Below, piece by piece: positions 2,247-61,621 of a stretch of DNA of 64,000 nucleotides; the first letter of the stretch is position 1; every line of letters begins with the position of its first letter. Location: positions 94,178,001 to 94,242,000 of the forward strand of contig OZ024744.1 in assembly GCA_964016885.1 (NCBI GenBank), in the 5' to 3' direction. The position numbers and the translations under genes were made by a program. Under the pieces are notes generated by a model. It was not told the origin of the DNA. It saw only the letters and a program-made list of their open reading frames with translations, and ran no database searches. The stretch comes from Eledone cirrhosa. Its lineage: Eukaryota.

Positions 2247-2873
2247 AGGGTGTTGGATTGGCAGTATCGGTAGAGGGTTGGACGCCATGCTTTCTAGCAT
2301 AGTTACGTCCCTTTACAGTCTGAGTTCAAATCCTGCCGAGGTTAACTTTGCCTTTCACCCTTACTGGGTCGATAAAATAAAGTACCAGTAATGTACTGGG
2401 TAATTGCTGGCCTTGTGCCTAAAGTAGAAACAATTATTACTGTCAAGGGTGTTGGATTGGCAGTATTGGTAGAGCGTCAGACACCATGCTTTGCAGCATA
2501 GAGTTATGTCCCTTGGCGTTCTGGGCTCAAATCCCGCCAAGGTTAACTTTGCCTTTCATCCATATGGGGTCGATAAAATAAAGTACCAGTAATGCACTAG
2601 AGTAATTGCTGGCCTTGTGCCAAACGTAGAAACAATTATCGTTATTTTCAATGTCAGGGCGGTGGATTGGTAATATTGGCAGAGTGTCAGACAACATGTA
2701 TCGTGGCATAAAGTTACGGCCCTTTATGTTCGGAGTTCAAATCTCGCCATTTGCTTTGCCCTTCATCCTTACGGGGTCGATAAAATAAAGTACCAGTAAT
2801 ACACTGGGGCCGATTTAATTGACCTTCCCCTTGCCCCAAAATCGTTGGCCTTGTGCCTAAATCAAACAATTAT
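2247..2873 (+). mobile_element. Three tandem copies of tRNA-derived SINE family A
   Basis: A-box-like tggcagtatcggtagag, B-box gagttcaaatcc, conserved core gcctttcatccttacggggtcgataaaataaagtaccag, AT-rich tail aaacaattatt. Confidence 0.85.
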
Positions 2874-3787
2874 TAATTTCAATGTCATTGACATTTTGGG
2901 GTTTGTGTTGGTGTCCTAATGAATATTCATCATCATCATCATTATCATCATCATTTAATGTCCACTTTCAATGCTAGCAAGAGTTGGATGGGTCTACATT
3001 GACCAAGTCAGTAGTGAAGCGGGATTACTGATGTCCAAGACAGTCCTTGTGCCAAATGTAAAAACAATTATTATTATTGAATTTGCATGAACAGGGAAAA
3101 TTCTATTTAAACATACCTGAAAGATTTAGACTTGTTTTTGTTTATGTAACTACAGATAATGCATAAATATAAATAAGTCAAATTTAATACATATATATTG
3201 TACATACGCACATGTATATATATATATATATATATATATCACCTTGACCACCTTGACCGACCAGTCTGTCGGGCGCCAATCGGCTTATGAAGGATGGCAG
3301 CTGCATAAAAAAGTGCAGAGTGTTCAAAGTCGTTGTGAAGCCTTCGAGTGGAGAGAAGACCTGGGATGGGGTGATAATAAAAGCCGACCTTGGCCAATTG
3401 CACTTCTCAGAGGAGATGACACATGACTGGGATTTCTGGTGATATGCAGTAATACAGAAAACCCGACTTCTCACGGATACAACCTGAAGCATATGTACAA
3501 TATGCACCGACCCCATACACCCCATCTCTCACGCCAGCCCGCCCACACTGTAAAGTGGATGTGTAAAAGACATGGTAAAAAGCACCCAGGCCACACTGTC
3601 AATGTGGTTGGCGTTAGGAAGGGCATCAAGCCATAGAAGACTATCCAGAAACAGTCCTATATGAGCGAGACACGGTCACTCGACACAACTTGTCTCAAAA
3701 TAGGACCCGTCTAACCCATGCTAGCATGGAGGATGGATGTTAATAGATGATGATGATGATATATATATATTTAGAGAGAGAGAGAGT

Positions 3788-3921
3788 TTAAGAAGAATTG
3801 AAGTCAGTGTTGTAACATATGTACAAACTTTATTGACATGTTACATTTGTTATCGAAACAATTGTAAAATGCCAATAAAGTTTGTACATATACTGCAGCA
3901 CTGACTTTGATTTCTTCTTAA
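3788..3921. repeat. Imperfect ~134-bp palindrome containing the 3' half of a hammerhead ribozyme
   Basis: ttaagaagaa..aagtcagtg..gtacaaactttattg mirrored by caataaagtttgtac..cactgactt..ttcttcttaa; right arm starts GAAAC-aatt-GTA. Confidence 0.75.
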
Positions 3922-6209: not shown

Positions 6210-6273
<64 letters not shown>

Positions 6274-6440
6274 GGAGGTGAGTTTTATTGTAGTACAATA
6301 AAGCAATGCAGATATCGGATAAGAAGCACTCTACAGTTTGTAGGACTGGAGTATAACTTTGAATAACTTTGAAATGTTTTGGCCAGTATTGGCCCAGGCC
6401 ATGTCTAACTTAATAGCACCACCATGTCTAACTTAATAGC

Positions 6441-6508
6441 AACACTTGTGGATAGTGCAGTTTTAAATCAACATATGTTGATTTAAAACTGCACTATCCA
6501 CAAGTGTT
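6441..6508. repeat. Perfect 68-bp palindrome
   Basis: aacacttgtggatagtgcagttttaaatcaacat|atgttgatttaaaactgcactatccacaagtgtt with no spacer; preceded by a short direct duplication of ccatgtctaacttaatagca. Confidence 0.95.
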
Positions 6509-6532
6509 TTTAACCTTCATATCATGTCCTCC

Positions 6533-6603
6533 TATTTTATCTGATGAAAACACAAATGTTATTGCATGATGATATTTGTTTTTGAAATGCGCATAATAAA
6601 ATA
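6533..6603 (+). ncRNA. Type I hammerhead ribozyme motif with minimal palindromic stem III (Penelope-LTR type)
   Basis: Stem I tattttat/ataaaata; CUGAUGA 6541-6547; ~16-bp stem II; GAAA 6584-6587; stem III atgcgcat; cleavage triplet AUA 6593-6595. Confidence 0.75.
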
Positions 6604-6933
6604 CATGGAACTCATTTAACCATCTTTTGATCTTATATATTATATATATATATATATATATACACATGTGTGCGTGTGCATACTTACATTAATATATATA
6701 AACACACACACATAAACAATCATATTTTTAGAAACATTGAGTGATTTATGAATTTTAGAAAATATGTCAGCTGAAAGTTAATAGCTTCGGCACAGGTTTT
6801 TGGCTATGAAAATAGTCTAACAAGTTGAGTATATAAAAGACCAGGGACAGAAAAAAGTGGAATATATATTTTGTGTGTGTGTGTGTGTGTAGTGGATAAA
6901 TGATATTCTTTTTGGGATGAATGATAAAAAGAA

Positions 6934-7113
6934 TAATTGTCTCTACTTTAGGCACAAGGCCAGCAATTACCCAGTGCATTACTGGTACTTTATTTTATCA
7001 ACCCCGTAAGGATGAAAGGCAAAGGCAACCTCGGCGGGATTTGAACTCAGATCGTAAAGGGGCGTAACTATGCTGGAAAGCATGGCGTCCGACCCTCTAC
7101 TGATACTGCTAAT
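6934..7113 (-). mobile_element. SINE family A copy
   Basis: Reverse complement of the family A consensus, including A and B boxes. Confidence 0.85.
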
Positions 7114-8535
7114 CAGAATTGTGATGTTAACAATGTTTATTTTATAATAACAATATTCACTTGTTGGTATATTGAACATCGAGTAATAATATTTATGACA
7201 GAAATTATCACTACATTATTTGCTAGCTAGCTACTTCGAGCTAGCGTGTATGCATGTATCAATACGAGGATACAATATGACAAGGAGACGGAAGAACAGA
7301 TTAAGTGTAGATGTAAACATGAAACTTACTATGTGTGTGTGCGTGTGTGTCTATTCTTAGTATACGTTATTCGTCTCAAGGACTGCTGCTTCATGGTCTC
7401 TTGTCTGTTGGCATAGTCCATGGCCAAGAAGGTGGGAGCCAGTGAGGCCAGTAGAGTGAATTGGCTACATCGTTATTCTCTCTCGGACTATTGCTTCGGT
7501 CTGGCTGTCTGGCTGTAGTCTGTGGCCAAGAAGGTGAAAGCCAGTAAGGCCAGGAGAAAGAGATAGAGTGAAAGGTCTGCTACATCATTAACCTTAAGAC
7601 GGACTGGCTGCTGGATTTCCCAACTCCTTGTATTTATAATAAGCCTATAATTAGAAGGATGTGTATATGGGGTTGATTTATGATCAGCCATGTGGATATC
7701 GTCTCTCAGGAAGCTGGGGGTCACCCGTCAAGTGGTATGTATGTTTATCATCCTGGTCTCTTGACAAGACAATGGTGGGAATCTCCCAAACATAGGTGGT
7801 TCTAGAGGCAAGAAACCTCAGATTCAGTTTCGAATCTTCGCCGGTAAAACATAGGAGTATTCCATTACATGTGTATCACCATCATCATCATCATCATCGT
7901 TTAACATTCAACTTCCACACTAGCATGGATTGGATGGATTTGTCCCACTTGAGACAAGATTGGTTGGGTGACCATGTCTCGCTCGTACAGAACTGTTTCT
8001 GTCAGGTTTTCTACGGCTGGATGCCCTTCCTAACACCAACCACATTTACAGTGTATACTGGGTGCTTACTGTGTCTCTTTCACGACCTCTTTACAGTGTG
8101 TACTGGGTGATTTTTGTCATGTCACCTACACGACCACTTTACAGTGGACAGAAGTGGGAGGATGTGTGTATATATATATTTATATGTGATTCGGTCACAC
8201 AGAACTGAAACCAAGCCAAATCAGTTCAGTGTGAGCGAATCACGGTCCCCCAATCTGATCCCTCACAAAGGGACAGCCTGTCCTACCCATATTAGCGTGG
8301 AAGATAGACGTTAAATGATGATGATGATGATGATGTGAGTTTAAAGAAACACCCGCATGTACATATACAGATTGTCCATGGAAATGCCTTTGTAGTTTTA
8401 TCTGTGGGGTGCAGCCTAAACATCGCCCCACCCCAAGCATAGAGCCTATCACCCTCTTCTCTTTCTCCTCCCTTTTTTCTGTGGCCTCATAGTCCTCAAT
8501 TTTTCCCTCCTTTTCTTCTCATTTATGGCATTTGA

Positions 8536-20117: not shown

Positions 20118-21050
20118 TGTAAAATATTATTATTATTATTACTATTATTATTATTATTATTATTATGTAAATAAAATTGTTATGTCGAGAAGAAATAACT
20201 CGTCTTTTTTTTTGGGGGGGGGGGGGCCCAGAAAAGAACCGACAAAGCAAACTAACATGACGCCTATCCCGCATATGTCGCAAAAAAAACCAATATATTT
20301 GTCAATTTCAAAGCACTGACATTTAAAGATGAAATCGAAACTATTAATTTAACAATAAATAAATAAATAAATAAATAAAGAGATTGCACAATAATTTAAA
20401 ATCACAGAAATTAACAAAGCCAATGTATATAAAACAATTTATAATAAAATAGTCAAATCATTTAGAAACGTTTCTTCAACTATTAATAATAAGTGTTTCT
20501 ATTTTAGGCACAAGGCCAGCAATAACCCAGTACATTACTGGTACTTTATTTTATCGACCCCGTAAGGAGGATGAAAGGCAAAGTTAACCTCGGCCGGATT
20601 TGAATTCAGATCGTAAAGGGACGTAACTATGCTGGAAAGCATAATAATAATATCAAGTCTTTACTTTAAATATATTTTCTAAAAATAATCTTACAAACTA
20701 TAGGAAAGTTAGTTTTTTTATGATACTTAATTATTTTATTAGTAATATTATTGTTGTTGTTACATTCAAAATAGTGACACAAACAAGAATGAAATATTTT
20801 TGAAACAATCTAATACAGCACAGCACATCCTATGCTTTCTTTTTATATATATATATATATATATATATAATTACGCATCCTATGCTTTCTTTCTTTATAT
20901 ATATATATATAAGCAGAAGGGATATTCAATTTGTTGTTGGTAGTTCAACAAATATATATATTTATAACTGATTCAAAGCACTCGACAATTTTCTGGAGTA
21001 TAATATCAATGATATTAAATAAATGGAAACTATATTTATAAAACCATATT

Positions 21051-21111
21051 TATTCTATTACATATATTTCAAGGGTACCAACATTTTGGTACGCTATCGT
21101 CAGATAAAATA
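21051..21111 (-). ncRNA. Type I hammerhead ribozyme motif (left arm)
   Basis: Reverse complement: tattttat CTGACGA tagcgtaccaa-aatg-ttggtaccctt GAAA tatatg TA atagaata; GUA triplet; first stem II pair is mismatched. Confidence 0.65.
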
Positions 21112-21242
21112 CGAAGTGTGTTTTCTAAATTTTGACATAACCAAGGAGAATATACCTTAACGGTTCAAGTTTTTCCTCAGGAATAACTTGAACCGTTAAG
21201 ATCTCCTTCCTGGATATGTCAATATTTATAAAACAAACTTTG

Positions 21243-21303
21243 TATTTTATCTGATGAGAGCGTATCAAAGTTTTGGTACCCTTGAAATATATATAATAGA
21301 ATA
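21243..21303 (+). ncRNA. Type I hammerhead ribozyme motif (right arm)
   Basis: tattttat CTGATGA gagcgtatcaa-agtt-ttggtaccctt GAAA tatata TA atagaata; stems I and II pair; palindromic stem III. Confidence 0.7.
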
Positions 21304-21439
21304 AATATGGTTTTATAAATATAGTTTCCATTTATTAATATCATTGATATTATACTCCAGAAAACTTGTCGAGTGCTTCAAACCAGTTATAAACATTTAT
21401 ATTTGTTGAATTACCAACAAATTAAATATCCCTTTTGCT

Positions 21440-21465
21440 CATATATATATATGTATGTATATATA

Positions 21466-33990: not shown

Positions 33991-36900
33991 AAACATTTCT
34001 TCCCTTCCTAAATCCCATCCCATCCCACCTGCTCTGCTATTGTATATGCCTTTCAATCACAAATACCTTTATTTGAATAGAATGTATTAACGTTTATTTA
34101 TATTCTATTTGTCATTTTATTTAATCTCCATTATACCATTACTTACTATTGTGATTGTGGTTTAAGCAAAATACATTTTATTACAATGTTTATGATTTAT
34201 GTCCAGGGTTATTTTATTTTTTTATTTTTATAAGCTCTTTTATGTGGGTTAGGTCATTCACCTGACCAACAAAAATAAAATTACTGCCTTCCTTAACCAT
34301 TTCATTACCACATTCTGTTTATGAAATGAAATATACTGTCTATGTGTTTCAATTAATTTTGAAAATTCCAAAAACATTTGGAGGTATTTAATAAAATACC
34401 TACATTTGTCATAAGTAAGCTAATATTTAGAATATTATTTAACAGACATTTCTAAAATAAAATTATGATGCAAGGTTTTAATATAAAGATAAATATTTTA
34501 AAATGGAGGTTCGATTCTGGGTGACTTGGGATCAAAAGGGTATAACTGACCACACCTTCTCATTCCACCCCACATCCATTTTCACTCTTATTCTCTCTAT
34601 ATCTCACCTTCCTCCAAATTCTCTTCCAGTCCCCACATTATTCTCTCCTCTACCCATGGCCAACTCTCTGCCACCACCTGCATTCTTCACTATATCCTAA
34701 TACTCATGGATTAAGGATGAAAAAATTACCTCCCTCTGTCTCTTTTCATGTCTATGTGTATATATGTATATATATATAGGAAGGGAATCCAGCTGTAGAA
34801 AACCCGCCAGACAGTCCTATGCGAGCAAGACAATCACTCTTGCCTCAAGTGGGAAAACCCCCGTCCAAACCCATGCAAGCGTGGAACACGGACGTTAAAC
34901 GATGATGATGATGATGATGATGATAGGTTGTGAGTTCAATTCTTAAACCAGGTGATGTGTTGTTTCCTTGAGCAAGACACTTTATTTCACATTGCTCCAG
35001 TTTACTCAGCTGTAGAAATGAGATGATAGGGACTGGGGTCCCTATCATTCCACTGCAAAGTGGTTGTGTAGGTGCCACGGAAAAAAAGCACCCAGTACTC
35101 ACTGTAAATGAGGTTGGTGTTAGGAAGGGCATCCTGCTGTAGAAATCAAGCCAGAATCAGTTCCCATCCCACCCTTGCAAGCAGGGAAAAGCGGATGTAA
35201 AATGATGATGATGATGATGATATATGTCAGGTCGCTCTTCAATGCTACAGGTAACATGTAACCCAGTACAACTTGTGCATGGTCAGGCCATCAGCGATTA
35301 AACTGGCAAACCCCAAATCACCTTCCCCACCAAGCAAGCTTGGTGTGGAAGGTGATTTTGGACACCCTGCGGGATGAAAACTAAAACTGTCATAGGGTGG
35401 AAGAACTCAGGAAAGTCAACAGTTATCCAATAAAGATTTTTTTTGTGGAGTGAGAGACTCCTAGTCTTCATAAAGACATCTCTCTAGGAGAAGTCACTCT
35501 GATTTAAAACCTGTGACTTCATTTGCATCCAATGATGTAGACCAGTTCTACTTTTTGGATAAATGCATTTGATGTTCAGAAAGTGGGATTGACCCTGTGC
35601 AAAGCATTTCCTCACTTAAAAAAGCTTCAAGCACAAACATTGCTTGATATGTGATATTTTTTGTGATTCATGACATTGCTGGCCATAGGCAAGCCCCTAG
35701 CATACTAAAAAGCCACATTTGTGATGCTCATGCTTAAGTATTAAGTGATAGCATTACTCGAAATCGTACATATATATATATATATATGTATGGTTTGAGA
35801 GGGACGAGGCTGTGTGGTTACTGATAACGAGTGTTAGAAAGTAAAGGGATACAAACATGAGATGGACATTTTCCCTTCATCAGTTGTCTACTACGAGTCA
35901 CAGATGTTTCAGCGCATTATAGACAATACATCTATCCGTAGCACGCTCATAGCCTTTTATCTATGAAAAAGCAATGAGGGAAAGAAGCAATAGCGAAGAG
36001 AGAGAAAGAAAGAAAAAGAAAAAGAAAAAGAAAAAGAAGAAAACATACCAATAGAAGGGGGAAACACAGGACAATGGCACATGTAAGTAAGTAACCGAGA
36101 AGAGAGAGAGGACAAAGTTAAAAAAAGGCAGTTGGGTTTAACAGTGGAAGATGAGAGTGTCTTTCTACTCCTCTCTCTCTCTGCCCCCTTACCACTTTCG
36201 TTTCCTTCGTCTCTCTCTCTCTGCGCCTGTTTCACTGAGAATAGACGTGTTTCTCTCATCTCTCTTTTGTTCTGTCCTATACTGGTGTAGGACAGAACAA
36301 AGGAGAGACACACAAAATAAAAACCTAGTCACTGAGGAGGTCACAGAATGTGTGACGAAAGAACTTTGACAATATATAAACAACCAACCGGTTATCAAAC
36401 CAACCAGCCGAAAACTTATAATAAATTGAAGTGAAAACCAACAAGTGCATGTATTTTTATTGGCAACATGACCCTCCCAAAGTTTAACAATATATATATA
36501 TAGAGAGAGAGAGAGAATGAGAATATGCGAAATAGTTTCAGATGTTAAAGTCCTTTATTGAAAATGCTGTGATACATATTTCAATGATGACAGGGGCCAC
36601 ATGATTCTGTGTAACCAGTACCGTGACATCATAAGGTTACGTTCCCAAGGCAATCCAAACATAAACAACAAGGGAACGGACAAGGCGCATGTTTTGGGAT
36701 CCCTCATATATATACTAGCTGCAGTACCCAGTAATACCCGGAAAAGGTGGAGTTATTCGCAGTTCCCAGAGTTCCCAGATTGCGCTTGAAAATGCTAGCA
36801 ATCATGGGTGCCCATACTGGATTTTCAATAGCAACCTTTGCTAGGTGTGTTTATGGCAGATAAATTTTTTGGTGTGGCACTATCAATAACTGTTTAAGTC

Positions 36901-50690: not shown

Positions 50691-51129
50691 TAATATATAT
50701 ATATATATATCATGGCTTAATGGTTAGAGCATTGGGCTTGCAATCGAAAGGTTGTGAGTTCAATTCTCGGACTGGGTGATGTGTTATTTCCTTGAGTAAG
50801 ACACTTTATTTCACATTGCTCCAGTTTACTCAGCTGTAGAAATGAGATGATAGGGATTGGGGTCCCTATCATTCCACTCCAAAGTGGTCATGGAGGTGCC
50901 ACGGCAAAAAAGCACCCAGCACTCACTGTAAAAGAGGTTGGTGTTAGGAAGGGCATTCATCTGTAGAAATCAAGCCAGAATCAGTTCCCGTATGAGCAAG
51001 ACAAGGTCAGCTGACCGGACATTGCCCACAAGACAACCCGTCTAACCCATACTAGCATGGAAGAACAGACGTAAAAAACGGTGAAAAACATGATGGATTC
51101 TCCAATCAATTTTAACATATAAAGATCTG

Positions 51130-58310: not shown

Positions 58311-61300
58311 TATAACTTTTGCTGAGCTGTTATAAAATAACTTTTACTGAGATGTTGTTATAAAATAACTTTCACTGAGTTGTTATAAAATAACTTTCAC
58401 TGAGTTGTTATAAAATAGCTTTTACTTAGTTGTTATAAAATAACTTTCAATGAGTTGTTATAAAATAACTTTCACTGAGTTGTTATAAATAACTTTCACT
58501 AAGTTGTTATAAAATAACTTTCAATGAGTTGTTATAAAATAACTTTTACTGAGTTGTTATAAAATAGCTTTTACTTAGTTGTTATAAAATAACTTTCAAT
58601 GAGTTGTTATAAAATAACTTTCAATGAGTTGTTATAAAATAACTTTCACTGAGTTGTTATAAATAACTTTCACTAAGTTGTTATAAAATAACTTTCAATG
58701 AGTTGTTATAAAATAACTTTTACTGAGTTGTTATAAATAACTTTCACTAAGTTGTTATAAAATAACTTTCACTGAGTTGTTATAAAATAACTTTCACTGA
58801 GTTGTTATAAAATAACTTTCACTAAGTTGTTATAAATAACTTTCACTAAGTTGTTATAAAATAACTTTCACTAAGTTGTTATAAATAACTTTCACTGAGT
58901 TGTTATAAAATAACTTTCACTGAGTTGTTATAAATAACTTTCACTGAGTTGTTATAAAATAACTTTCACTAAGTTGTTATAAAATAACTTTCACTGAGTT
59001 GTTATAAAATAACTTTCACTGAGTTGTTATAAAATAGCTTTTACTTAGTTGTTATAAAATAACTTTCAATGAGTTGTTATAAATAACTTTCACTGAGTTG
59101 TTATAAATAACTTTCACTAAGTTGTTATAAAATAACTTTCAATGAGTTGTTATAAATAACTTTCACTGAGTTGTTATAAATAACTTTCACTAAGTTGTTA
59201 TAAATAACTTTCACTAAGTTGTTATAAATAACTTTCACTAAGTTGTTATAAAATAACTTTCACTGAGTTGTTATAAATAACTTTCACTGAGTTGTTATAA
59301 AATAACTTTCAATGAGTTGTTATAAAATAACTTTCACTGAGTTGTTATAAATAACTTTCACTGAGTTGTTATAAATAACTTTCACTGAGTTGTTATAAAT
59401 AACTTTCACTGAGTTGTTATAAATAACTTTCACTGAGTTGTTATAAAATAACTTTCACTGAGTTGTTATAAATAACTTTCAATGAGTTGTTATAAAATAG
59501 CTTTTACTTAGTTGTTATAAAATAACTTTTAATAAGTTGTTATAAAATAACTTTCAATGAGTTGTTATAAAATAGCTTTCACTGAGTTGTTATAAAATAA
59601 CTTTCAATGAGTTGTTATAAAATAGCTTTCACTGAGTTGTTATAAAATAACTTTTACTTAGTTGTTATAAAATAACTTTCAATGAGTTGTTATAAAATAG
59701 CTTTTACTTAGTTGTTATAAAATAACTTTTAATAAGTTGTTATAAAATAGCTTTTACTGAGTTGTTATAAAATAGCTTTTACTGAGTTGTTATAAAATAG
59801 CTTATACTGAGTTGTTATAAAATAACTTTTACTGAGTTGTTATAAAATAACTTTTAATAAGTTGTTATAAATAACTTTCACTGAGTTGTTATAAAATAAC
59901 TTTCACTGAGTTGTTATAAATAACTTTCAATGAGTTGTTATAAAATAGCTTTTACTTAGTTGTTATAAAATAACTTTTAATAAGTTGTTATAAAATAACT
60001 TTCAATGAGTTGTTATAAAATAGCTTTCACTGAGTTGTTATAAAATAACTTTCAATGAGTTGTTATAAAATAGCTTTTACTTAGTTGTTATAAAATAACT
60101 TTTAATAAGTTGTTATAAAATAGCTTTTACTGAGTTGTTATAAAATAGCTTTTACTGAGTTGTTATAAAATAGCTTATACTGAGTTGTTATAAAATAACT
60201 TTTACTGAGTTGTTATAAAATAACTTTTAATAAGTTGTTATAAATAACTTTCAATGAGTTGTTATAAAATAACTTTTAGTGAATTGTTATAAAATAGCTT
60301 TACTGAGTTGTTATAAAATAACTTTTAGTGAGTTGTTATAAAATAGCTTTACTGAGTTGTTATAAAATAACTTTTAATAAGTTATAAAATAACTTTTAAT
60401 AAGTTGTTATAAAATAACTTTTAATAAGTTGTTATAAAATAACTTTCACTGAGTTGTTATAAAATAACTTTTACTGAGTTGTTATAAAATAACTTTTACT
60501 GAGTTGTTATAAAATAACTTTTACTGAGTTGTTATAAAATAGCTTTCACTGAGTTGTTATAAAATAACTTTCAATAAGTTATTATAAAATAGCTTTTACT
60601 GAGTTGTTATAAAATAACTTTTACTGAGATGTTATAAAATAACTTTTACTGAGTTGTTATAAAATAACTTTTAAAGAGTTGTTATAAAATAACTTTCACT
60701 GAGTTGTTATATAATAACTTTTACTGAGTTGTTATAAAATAACTTTCAATGAGTTGTTATAAAATAACTTACTCTGAGCTGTTATAAAATAACTTTTAAT
60801 AAGTTGTTATAAAATAGCTTTTACTGAGTTGTTATAAAATAGCTTTTACTGAGTTGTTATAAAATAACTTTCACTGAGTTGTTATAAAATAACTTTCACT
60901 GAGTTGTTATATAATAACTTTTACTGAGTTGTTATAAAATAGCTTTTACTGAGTTGTTATAAAATAACTTTCACTGAGTTGTTATAAAATAACTTTTACT
61001 GAGTTGTTATAAAATAACTTTCACTGAGTTGTTATAAAATAACTTTCACTGAGTTGTTATAAAATAACTTTCACTGAGTTGTTATAAAATAACTTTTACT
61101 GAGTTGTTATAAAATAACTTTCACTGAGTTGTTATAAAATAACTTTCACTGAGTTGTTATAAAATAACTTTCACTGAGTTGTTATATAATAACTTTTTCT
61201 GAGTTGTTATAAAATAGCTTTTACTGTGTTGTTTTAAATAACTTTTAAAGAGTTGTTATAAAATAACTTTCACTGAGTTGTTATATAATAACTTTTACTG

Positions 61301-61407
61301 AGTTGTTATAAAATAACTTTTAATAAGTTGTTATAAAATAACTTTCAATGAGTTGTTATAAAATAACTTACTCTGAGCTGTTATAAAATAACTTTCAATA
61401 AGCTGTT
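58311..61407. repeat. Satellite array, 24-25-bp unit TTGTTATAAAATAACTTTCACTGAG, roughly 125 copies
   Basis: Uninterrupted tandem units with recurring variants; diverged units at both edges. Confidence 0.97.
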
Positions 61408-61621
61408 AGGAGATGGCTTTCTCTAAACTGATAAGAAATTACTTTCTCTAAGCTGTAAAGAAGTGATACCTTCGCAGAACGGCTATGAAATGACGTTCTT
61501 TACCTTGTAAATTTTTAGTCATATCTATTATGATGTAATAAGCTAAAAAATACACATACACATTGTGTATATGTATATTTATTTTATTTATATATATGTA
61601 TGTGTGTATATACATATATGA

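Follow-up and report, generated by a model that had tools for sequence, protein, structure and literature searches.

Between positions 6270 and approximately 6645, the window (the whole 64,000-nucleotide stretch of Eledone cirrhosa DNA analyzed here) carries a short insertion, hereafter called a stub, derived from a young Penelope-like retroelement (PLE), of which it represents the 3′ end; by its motifs the PLE is likely of the Hydra clade. The first-pass annotation had singled out a palindrome lying next to a hammerhead motif; both are real, but they belong to this one insertion, from which a second hammerhead has been lost. Its components are listed below, with M denoting positions on the monomer of the autonomous parent element.

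6216–6269, no strand: (TA)n target array, tail side
6270–6355, minus strand: 86-nt PLE tail, the 3′ end of the tail-bearing copy (M3624-3709)
6356–6440, minus strand: 3′ end of an unrelated LINE, inserted later, with a 15-nt partial duplication
6441–6508, no strand: perfect 68-bp palindrome, remnant of the head-to-head junction, centered between 6474 and 6475
6472–6648, plus strand: tail-less copy of the 3′ part of the pLTR (M3450-3627), 94% identical to the parent
6473, plus strand: putative +1 (parent A3451), at which the template RNA would have its 5′ end, in the plus-strand arm; placed from sister copies and not visible here
6533–6603, plus strand: minimal type I hammerhead with a self-complementary helix III segment
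6533–6540 and 6596–6603, plus strand: hammerhead stem I, 8 bp
6541–6547, plus strand: hammerhead core CUGAUGA
6548–6583, plus strand: hammerhead stem II, 15 pairs (3 G-U) with a C.U mismatch, and a loop of 4 nt
6584–6587, plus strand: hammerhead GAAA
6588–6593, plus strand: hammerhead UGCGCA
6594–6595, plus strand: hammerhead UA, with the predicted cut after 6595
6634–6662, no strand: (TA)n target array, tail-less side

The palindrome is spacer-less, with arms of 34 bp, and is the sole perfect non-TA palindrome with arms of at least 12 bp in the 64-kb window; as had been described, it ends 24 nt before stem I of the hammerhead. In the latter, the CUGANGA/GAAA/UH core, helices I and II and the palindromic helix III are all present, and the motif layout places the predicted cleavage where it had already been proposed. 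The stem II announced as 16 bp long is indeed a long paired stem, but with one pair fewer and the mismatch given above, and the (TA)n array said to follow the hammerhead is there, but only after approximately 30 nt of element sequence; the final 10 nt or so of the tail-less copy blend into this array. The stability of the isolated motif is not unusual (z = −0.74), the hammerhead fold having an energy of −6.4 kcal/mol versus −10.6 kcal/mol for the minimum free energy structure, and Rfam gave no hammerhead family, either at the gathering score or among the 41 matches to E ≤ 10. Elsewhere in the window there are a 25-bp minisatellite of about 125 copies (58312-61408) and a weak tRNA match (50711-50774, 30.9 bits), which is probably a SINE head.

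A genome-wide search for exact matches to the pattern stem I-core-gap-GAAA-N6-UA-stem I returned 14,771 and 14,611 hits on the two strands (29,382 in total) in the 3.0-Gb genome, whereas the reversed pattern used as control returned 0 and 0, so that the motif is not a product of chance. For the same reason, and because the motif hardly differs from those of young transposon copies, we consider the likelihood of a host-domesticated ribozyme or hairpin RNA, or of a fortuitous motif, to be next to negligible: the hairpin does score on miRNA models below their thresholds, but these scores are far under the gathering cut-offs and any perfect hairpin produces them. The repeat also occurs in four contig runs, the kind of which is unrecorded, and many of the joints lie close to 6473-6477; these runs are uninformative on expression.

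The hammerhead was compared in 75 distinct stem II variants drawn from several families. Positions 1-3 and 5-9 of stem II are paired in 60-72 of the 75 variants, position 4 is paired in a single one, with C.C or C.U in almost all, and four stem II positions hold 252 Watson-Crick pairs versus 165±7 after shuffling, a test that ignores relatedness among the variants. Of 247 matches, in which overlapping loci are counted repeatedly, 229 have a self-complementary loop 3; among distinct hexamers this holds for 7 of 16. The earlier suggestion of a real, structurally conserved RNA motif is thus borne out by stem II and loop 3; stem I yields no covariation evidence, since it was set by the search pattern. 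It differs by just one base from the motifs of the 21-kb element in the window, which the first-pass annotation had noted it to match almost exactly. By contrast, the A-U pair that opens stem II, read at first as a possible sign of reduced activity, is part of the norm, with A-U in 42 and G-U in 29 variants (71/75) and G-C (G10.1-C11.1) in none. The helix III segment of the window copy could form an 8-bp homoduplex (−10.5 kcal/mol), and by its sequence the motif fits the dimer-type min-HHR described by Cervera & de la Pena (2014, PMC4209133), a type reported there to cleave weakly.

Further observations concern other hammerheads. The 21-kb element (20905-21445) belongs to a second family of PLE ends of the same design, with 4,758 first-look candidates; its window copy is unusual in having a tail on both arms, which are just 88% alike. 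The tail starts with TATACTCCAG in both families (6348-6355 and 21350-21380), followed by a GAGTGC segment able to pair with it, and the TATACTCCAG/GAGTGC arrangement may mark the inner start site of the reverse transcriptase (RT). At 36332-36366 lies another hammerhead-like motif, whose stem II has 6 bp and whose stem I is weak; it recurs at other loci. Tandem hammerhead repeats with periods of approximately 490 bp (L110:8168-9653) and 460 bp (L101:6800-7259), lying in (TA)n, are retrozyme-like.

A DNA search produced 819 first-look candidates, and 40 of them were scored. The order of parts in intact copies is (TA)n, an inverted arm of about 170 nt, center, arm, 86-nt tail and (TA)n again; an intact stub is a palindrome of approximately 340 bp within (TA)n, each arm of which holds a hammerhead, and has a tail on one side only. 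The tail in the window is 100% identical to that of the parent. The arm that bears it has lost about 135 nt, its hammerhead among them, and an 85-bp LINE piece stands in their place, so that the 68-bp palindrome is what remains of the larger one. This piece recurs elsewhere in the genome, with 26 first-look places, and in locus L033 it lies downstream of an RVT_1 ORF, at a distance of approximately 750 nt, which identifies it as a LINE 3′ end. The replacement most likely postdates the insertion, since the surviving arm retains the sequence missing from the other. A tandem array of 23-bp units (L036, G000:C24:8178500-8179568) ends in the same LINE 3′ end, and the window piece holds about 1.6 of these units. 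The 64-kb window has no ORF remnant of the parent, and taken by itself the locus is commonplace transposon debris, a damaged copy, whose surviving hammerhead would probably be inert, having no partner on its own strand.

The parent was reached through paired hammerheads of the family lying 3.7 kb apart. At locus L152 (G000:C1:12246500-12256400), an open frame of 808 codons lies between direct repeats (2838-3912 and 6547-7686, 92% identical) that end in the stub unit with 96% identity; the pLTRs are in partial tandem, and further tandem copies were found. The monomer has 3,709 nt, with a 3′ UTR of approximately 1.2 kb and a tail of 86 nt. All 56 ORF relatives scored are 93-100% identical in amino acids and nearly full length, mostly without stops. 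Counted from the first Met, the protein has 798 aa, with the RT motifs FVQFD/FDITMG/IYRDD, a GIY-YIG-like motif, SDKT at 122, CxCx5C at 657, CxxC at 757, CxH near 787 and, at 34, RRLRWI, in which the RW of RWK is kept and the K replaced. By eye, its endonuclease has no CCHH arrangement, the second Cys and the last His of Neptune-type endonucleases being missing. Neither RT nor GIY-YIG was recognized by Pfam in this ORF, and a PDB search with the protein gave no match; it shares 24% identity over 237 aa with a PLE of the same genome whose RT and GIY-YIG are confirmed by Pfam, and has 37 homologues at 28-41% identity, the only named one being from Argonauta hians, which, taken with the Hydra-clade element Hydra-1_Obim, would fit a cephalopod-like host. 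By these sequence features, i.e., a single ORF with RT and GIY-YIG-like regions, pLTRs, an inverted truncated copy and a one-sided tail, the parent is an EN+ PLE.

Its likely placement in the Hydra clade comes from motifs and by-eye comparison instead of a tree. The clade is described as having DKT, a CxCx5C linker, an endonuclease with CxxC and CxH and no CCHH, RWK and, generally, a length under 3 kb (PMC8557442); the 3.7-kb monomer exceeds that usual length, which in the same source is a tendency and not a diagnostic character. A Pfam search for GIY-YIG returned mainly Neptune-type PLEs, and in 30 three-kb and 20 ten-kb loci the stub unit ended no such ORF. At L153:2750-6426 a further autonomous family, also Hydra-like, was observed; its ORF is broken and lies between two hammerheads that have a different type of stem II. 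By eye, the hammerheads carried by the Neptune-type PLEs of this genome (L101:5100-6350 and the 3′ UTRs in L070-L097) are variants whose core is U3-A8 and whose helix III is CCGG.

How such insertions are put together was analyzed with a search for the tail pattern, which gave 11,650 exact matches genome-wide; the first 100 on contig C1 were mapped on the parent monomer, a sample biased toward young tail-bearing copies of a single contig. Five of these tails are internal and 95 terminal, with one insertion counted twice. TA-rich sequence follows 94 of the 95 terminal tails, and an inverted partner adjoins 78, none being detected for the other 17. In 72 of the 78 pairs the tail-less arm ends at the inner edge of the tail (M3612-3630), in 59 of these 72 within (TA)n, and in the remaining six it ends elsewhere. 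The two arms of a locus differ on average at 1.4 positions versus 7.7 between loci (n = 37). The simplest reading of these sequences would be one cDNA per target strand, each from its own start site, with their 3′ ends joined. In Poseidon_Ac (PAc), both strands are reported to be cut and extended, two RT start sites flank the tail and the protein is predicted to be a dimer (PMC11167929).

It might instead be proposed that the inverted arm is made by a single cDNA that folds back at its 3′ end and copies its own sequence. The spacer-less centers, the closeness of arms within loci and the rare variants that both arms have in common at some loci would suit such an event. Nevertheless, arm likeness would also follow from two RNAs of a single donor locus, and in 34 of the 78 pairs the tail-less arm extends past the 5′ limit of the tail arm by more than 20 nt; in these cases it was not copied from the tail arm, a tail-less cDNA cannot supply the tail, and a single-cDNA fold-back cannot make the structure. 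Moreover, the arms of L003 carry different haplotypes. We therefore regard fold-back as unlikely, and return to two cDNAs as the preferred reading.

Another possibility is that the palindromic unit of approximately 430 bp is a mobile family of its own, either a MITE-like DNA transposon or a founder fold-back SINE, which spread whole. The central 24-mer of the palindrome is exact at 842 loci, the best matches are 98-100% alike and the flanks are TA, all of which would agree with it. Against it, the unit is asymmetric, with a tail on one side, small insertions vary the junctions, and identical arm ends occur in long ORF-bearing insertions as well. In a tree of the arms, stubs and long insertions are intermixed, with 33 label changes versus 36.1 when shuffled, at least 14 of them forced by well-supported branches, in an analysis in which L300 and L304 were labeled long though they are stubs and the bootstrap is unsettled; the mixture argues that stubs arose repeatedly. 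As the sole origin, a mobile unit is largely refuted by the asymmetry, the junctions, the tree and the shared arm ends, and we hold it to be highly improbable, although secondary re-transposition of stubs may occur.

The 5′ ends of the arms, analyzed after setting aside L292, which duplicates L291, and the five tails that are internal, are concentrated at M3449-3453, i.e., 69 nt upstream of the core, in 50 of 171 arms. Both arms end there in 18 loci, one arm in 15 and an unpaired arm in three; the 15 loci in which only one arm stops indicate that the stop is a property of the template and not an artefact of the palindrome. Arms that begin exactly at A3451 have G in place of the parental C in 18 of 28 cases, versus 9 of 72 other ends (p = 6e-7); dropping two ambiguous loci leaves 16 of 26, and an earlier, noisier control that included false ends at subfamily variants gave 14/24 versus 33/106 (p = 0.018). 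Genome-wide, the junction base is G in 2,073 cases, A or T in 2,119 and the parental C in 6,799; the genome-wide share of G (49%) lies below that of the sample (64%). By eye, the stub arms L058, L061, L062 and L110 of the 21-kb family begin G-ACTATCC, whereas a longer copy, L121, has T; L142 has T and L050 has C.

An untemplated 5′ G is read as a trace of the cap in L1 and SVA (PMC4859970), and an internal promoter has been described for Penelope (PMC2377424). In the light of these sequence patterns, the extra G is likely a cap trace, and a capped RNA would start 69 nt upstream of the core, though addition at run-off from an uncapped end could also produce the extra base. The 5′ pLTRs of full-length copies are not clustered at this putative +1, for which reason we do not extend the start to the coding RNA. 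Our literature search, which covered subscription journals thinly, found no publication in which PLE insertions show a cap trace or have paired start sites.

No excess of 5′ ends was observed near the predicted cut (3/41, p = 0.12), which indicates that the copies likely stem from uncut RNA; insertion of PAc is likewise reported to be independent of the HHR and to use uncut RNA (PMC11167929). This bears on the view of the locus as a retrozyme, in which a circular, hammerhead-processed RNA would be copied into DNA. Although the type I hammerhead and its self-complementary helix III would fit, and retrozymes have been proposed to derive from PLEs (bioRxiv 10.64898/2026.07.22.740005), the locus has one hammerhead and no tandem head-to-tail monomers, of which a retrozyme has at least two, its sequence is collinear with the 3′ end of an autonomous PLE, and the copies run through the uncut site as far as a fixed 5′ base upstream of it, where they stop. 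We find a retrozyme origin scarcely credible.

Taken together, it is very probable that the stub is a short, ORF-less insertion of the hammerhead-bearing 3′ repeat (pLTR) of a young PLE, likely of the Hydra clade, and was likely formed by two cDNAs that were primed from the cut (TA)n strands and joined head to head. In this scheme, the pLTR promoter would start a capped RNA at A3451, the RT/endonuclease would nick both (TA)n strands, and one cDNA would begin at each edge of the tail. Both cDNAs would then run off the 5′ end of the uncut RNA and anneal through ATAT/CATATG, leaving a spacer-less palindrome. Cleavage by the hammerhead would require a dimer or the help of protein, insertion itself needing no cutting, and in the window copy a later break of the palindrome would have been mended with LINE cDNA.

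A broader claim, on which we are evenly divided, is that stubs form a fossil 5′-RACE and TPRT record, according to which Hydra pLTRs start capped RNA approximately 70-80 nt upstream of the hammerhead, and each insertion involves two rounds of copying of the uncut RNA, which begin at the two edges of the tail and use opposite target strands. Since the start site and both priming sites are kept in every intact stub, stubs could also be self-renewing, SINE-like PLEs. The mechanism of tandem and inverted PLE insertion and the role of the hammerhead are treated as open in PMC8557442 and PMC11167929, and the family statistics presented here bear on both. According to the model, each target strand would have its own RT start site, the RNA would start with a cap at a defined base, and the template would be uncut; the many intact ORFs of the parent family are usable in vitro. 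In annotation, palindromes of this kind should be treated as PLE ends instead of MITEs, miRNA hairpins or host ribozymes. The literature already describes hammerheads, inverted copies and tails in PLEs (PMC4209133; PMC8557442); the value of the present data is carried by the family-level evidence for paired priming and for a capped, uncut template.

Among known systems, the Hydra-clade PLEs as described by Craig et al. (2021, PMC8557442) have in common with the parent a single ORF with RT plus GIY-YIG at the C terminus, DKT, CxCx5C and CxxC/CxH, together with a hammerhead in the 3′ repeat, insertion in (TA)n, an inverted 5′-truncated copy and a one-sided tail. The parent tail, in contrast, is 86 nt long versus 30-40 nt in that clade, and the window locus is without an ORF; Hydra-1_Obim, compared by eye with supplement rows of the same study, is another family, whose hammerhead and protein differ from those of the parent. 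The metazoan PLE min-HHRs of PMC4209133 share the conserved core, the long stem II, the short palindromic helix III suiting dimer folding, the dual motifs on opposite strands 100-700 bp apart and the thousands of copies per genome. They differ in the conserved G10.1-C11.1 pair, where A-U or G-U is found here, and from them the present family is also set apart by the C.Y mismatch at stem II position 4 in almost all variants, by a stem I of 8 bp and by its copy number, with the exact matches to one pattern reported above versus approximately 9,000 min-HHRs in Xenopus. PAc (Frangieh et al. 2024) resembles our model in its AT-rich target, the two RT starts flanking the tail, the extension of both strands and the use of uncut RNA, but it belongs to a different clade, and in the main text of PMC11167929 we found neither a genomic pairing of one start site per arm nor a capped, fixed 5′ end. 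Finally, the animal non-LTR retrozymes of the bioRxiv report are, like the stub, non-coding, hammerhead-bearing and PLE-related, but they are tandem arrays of monomers, whereas the stub in the window consists of pLTR ends arranged head to head.
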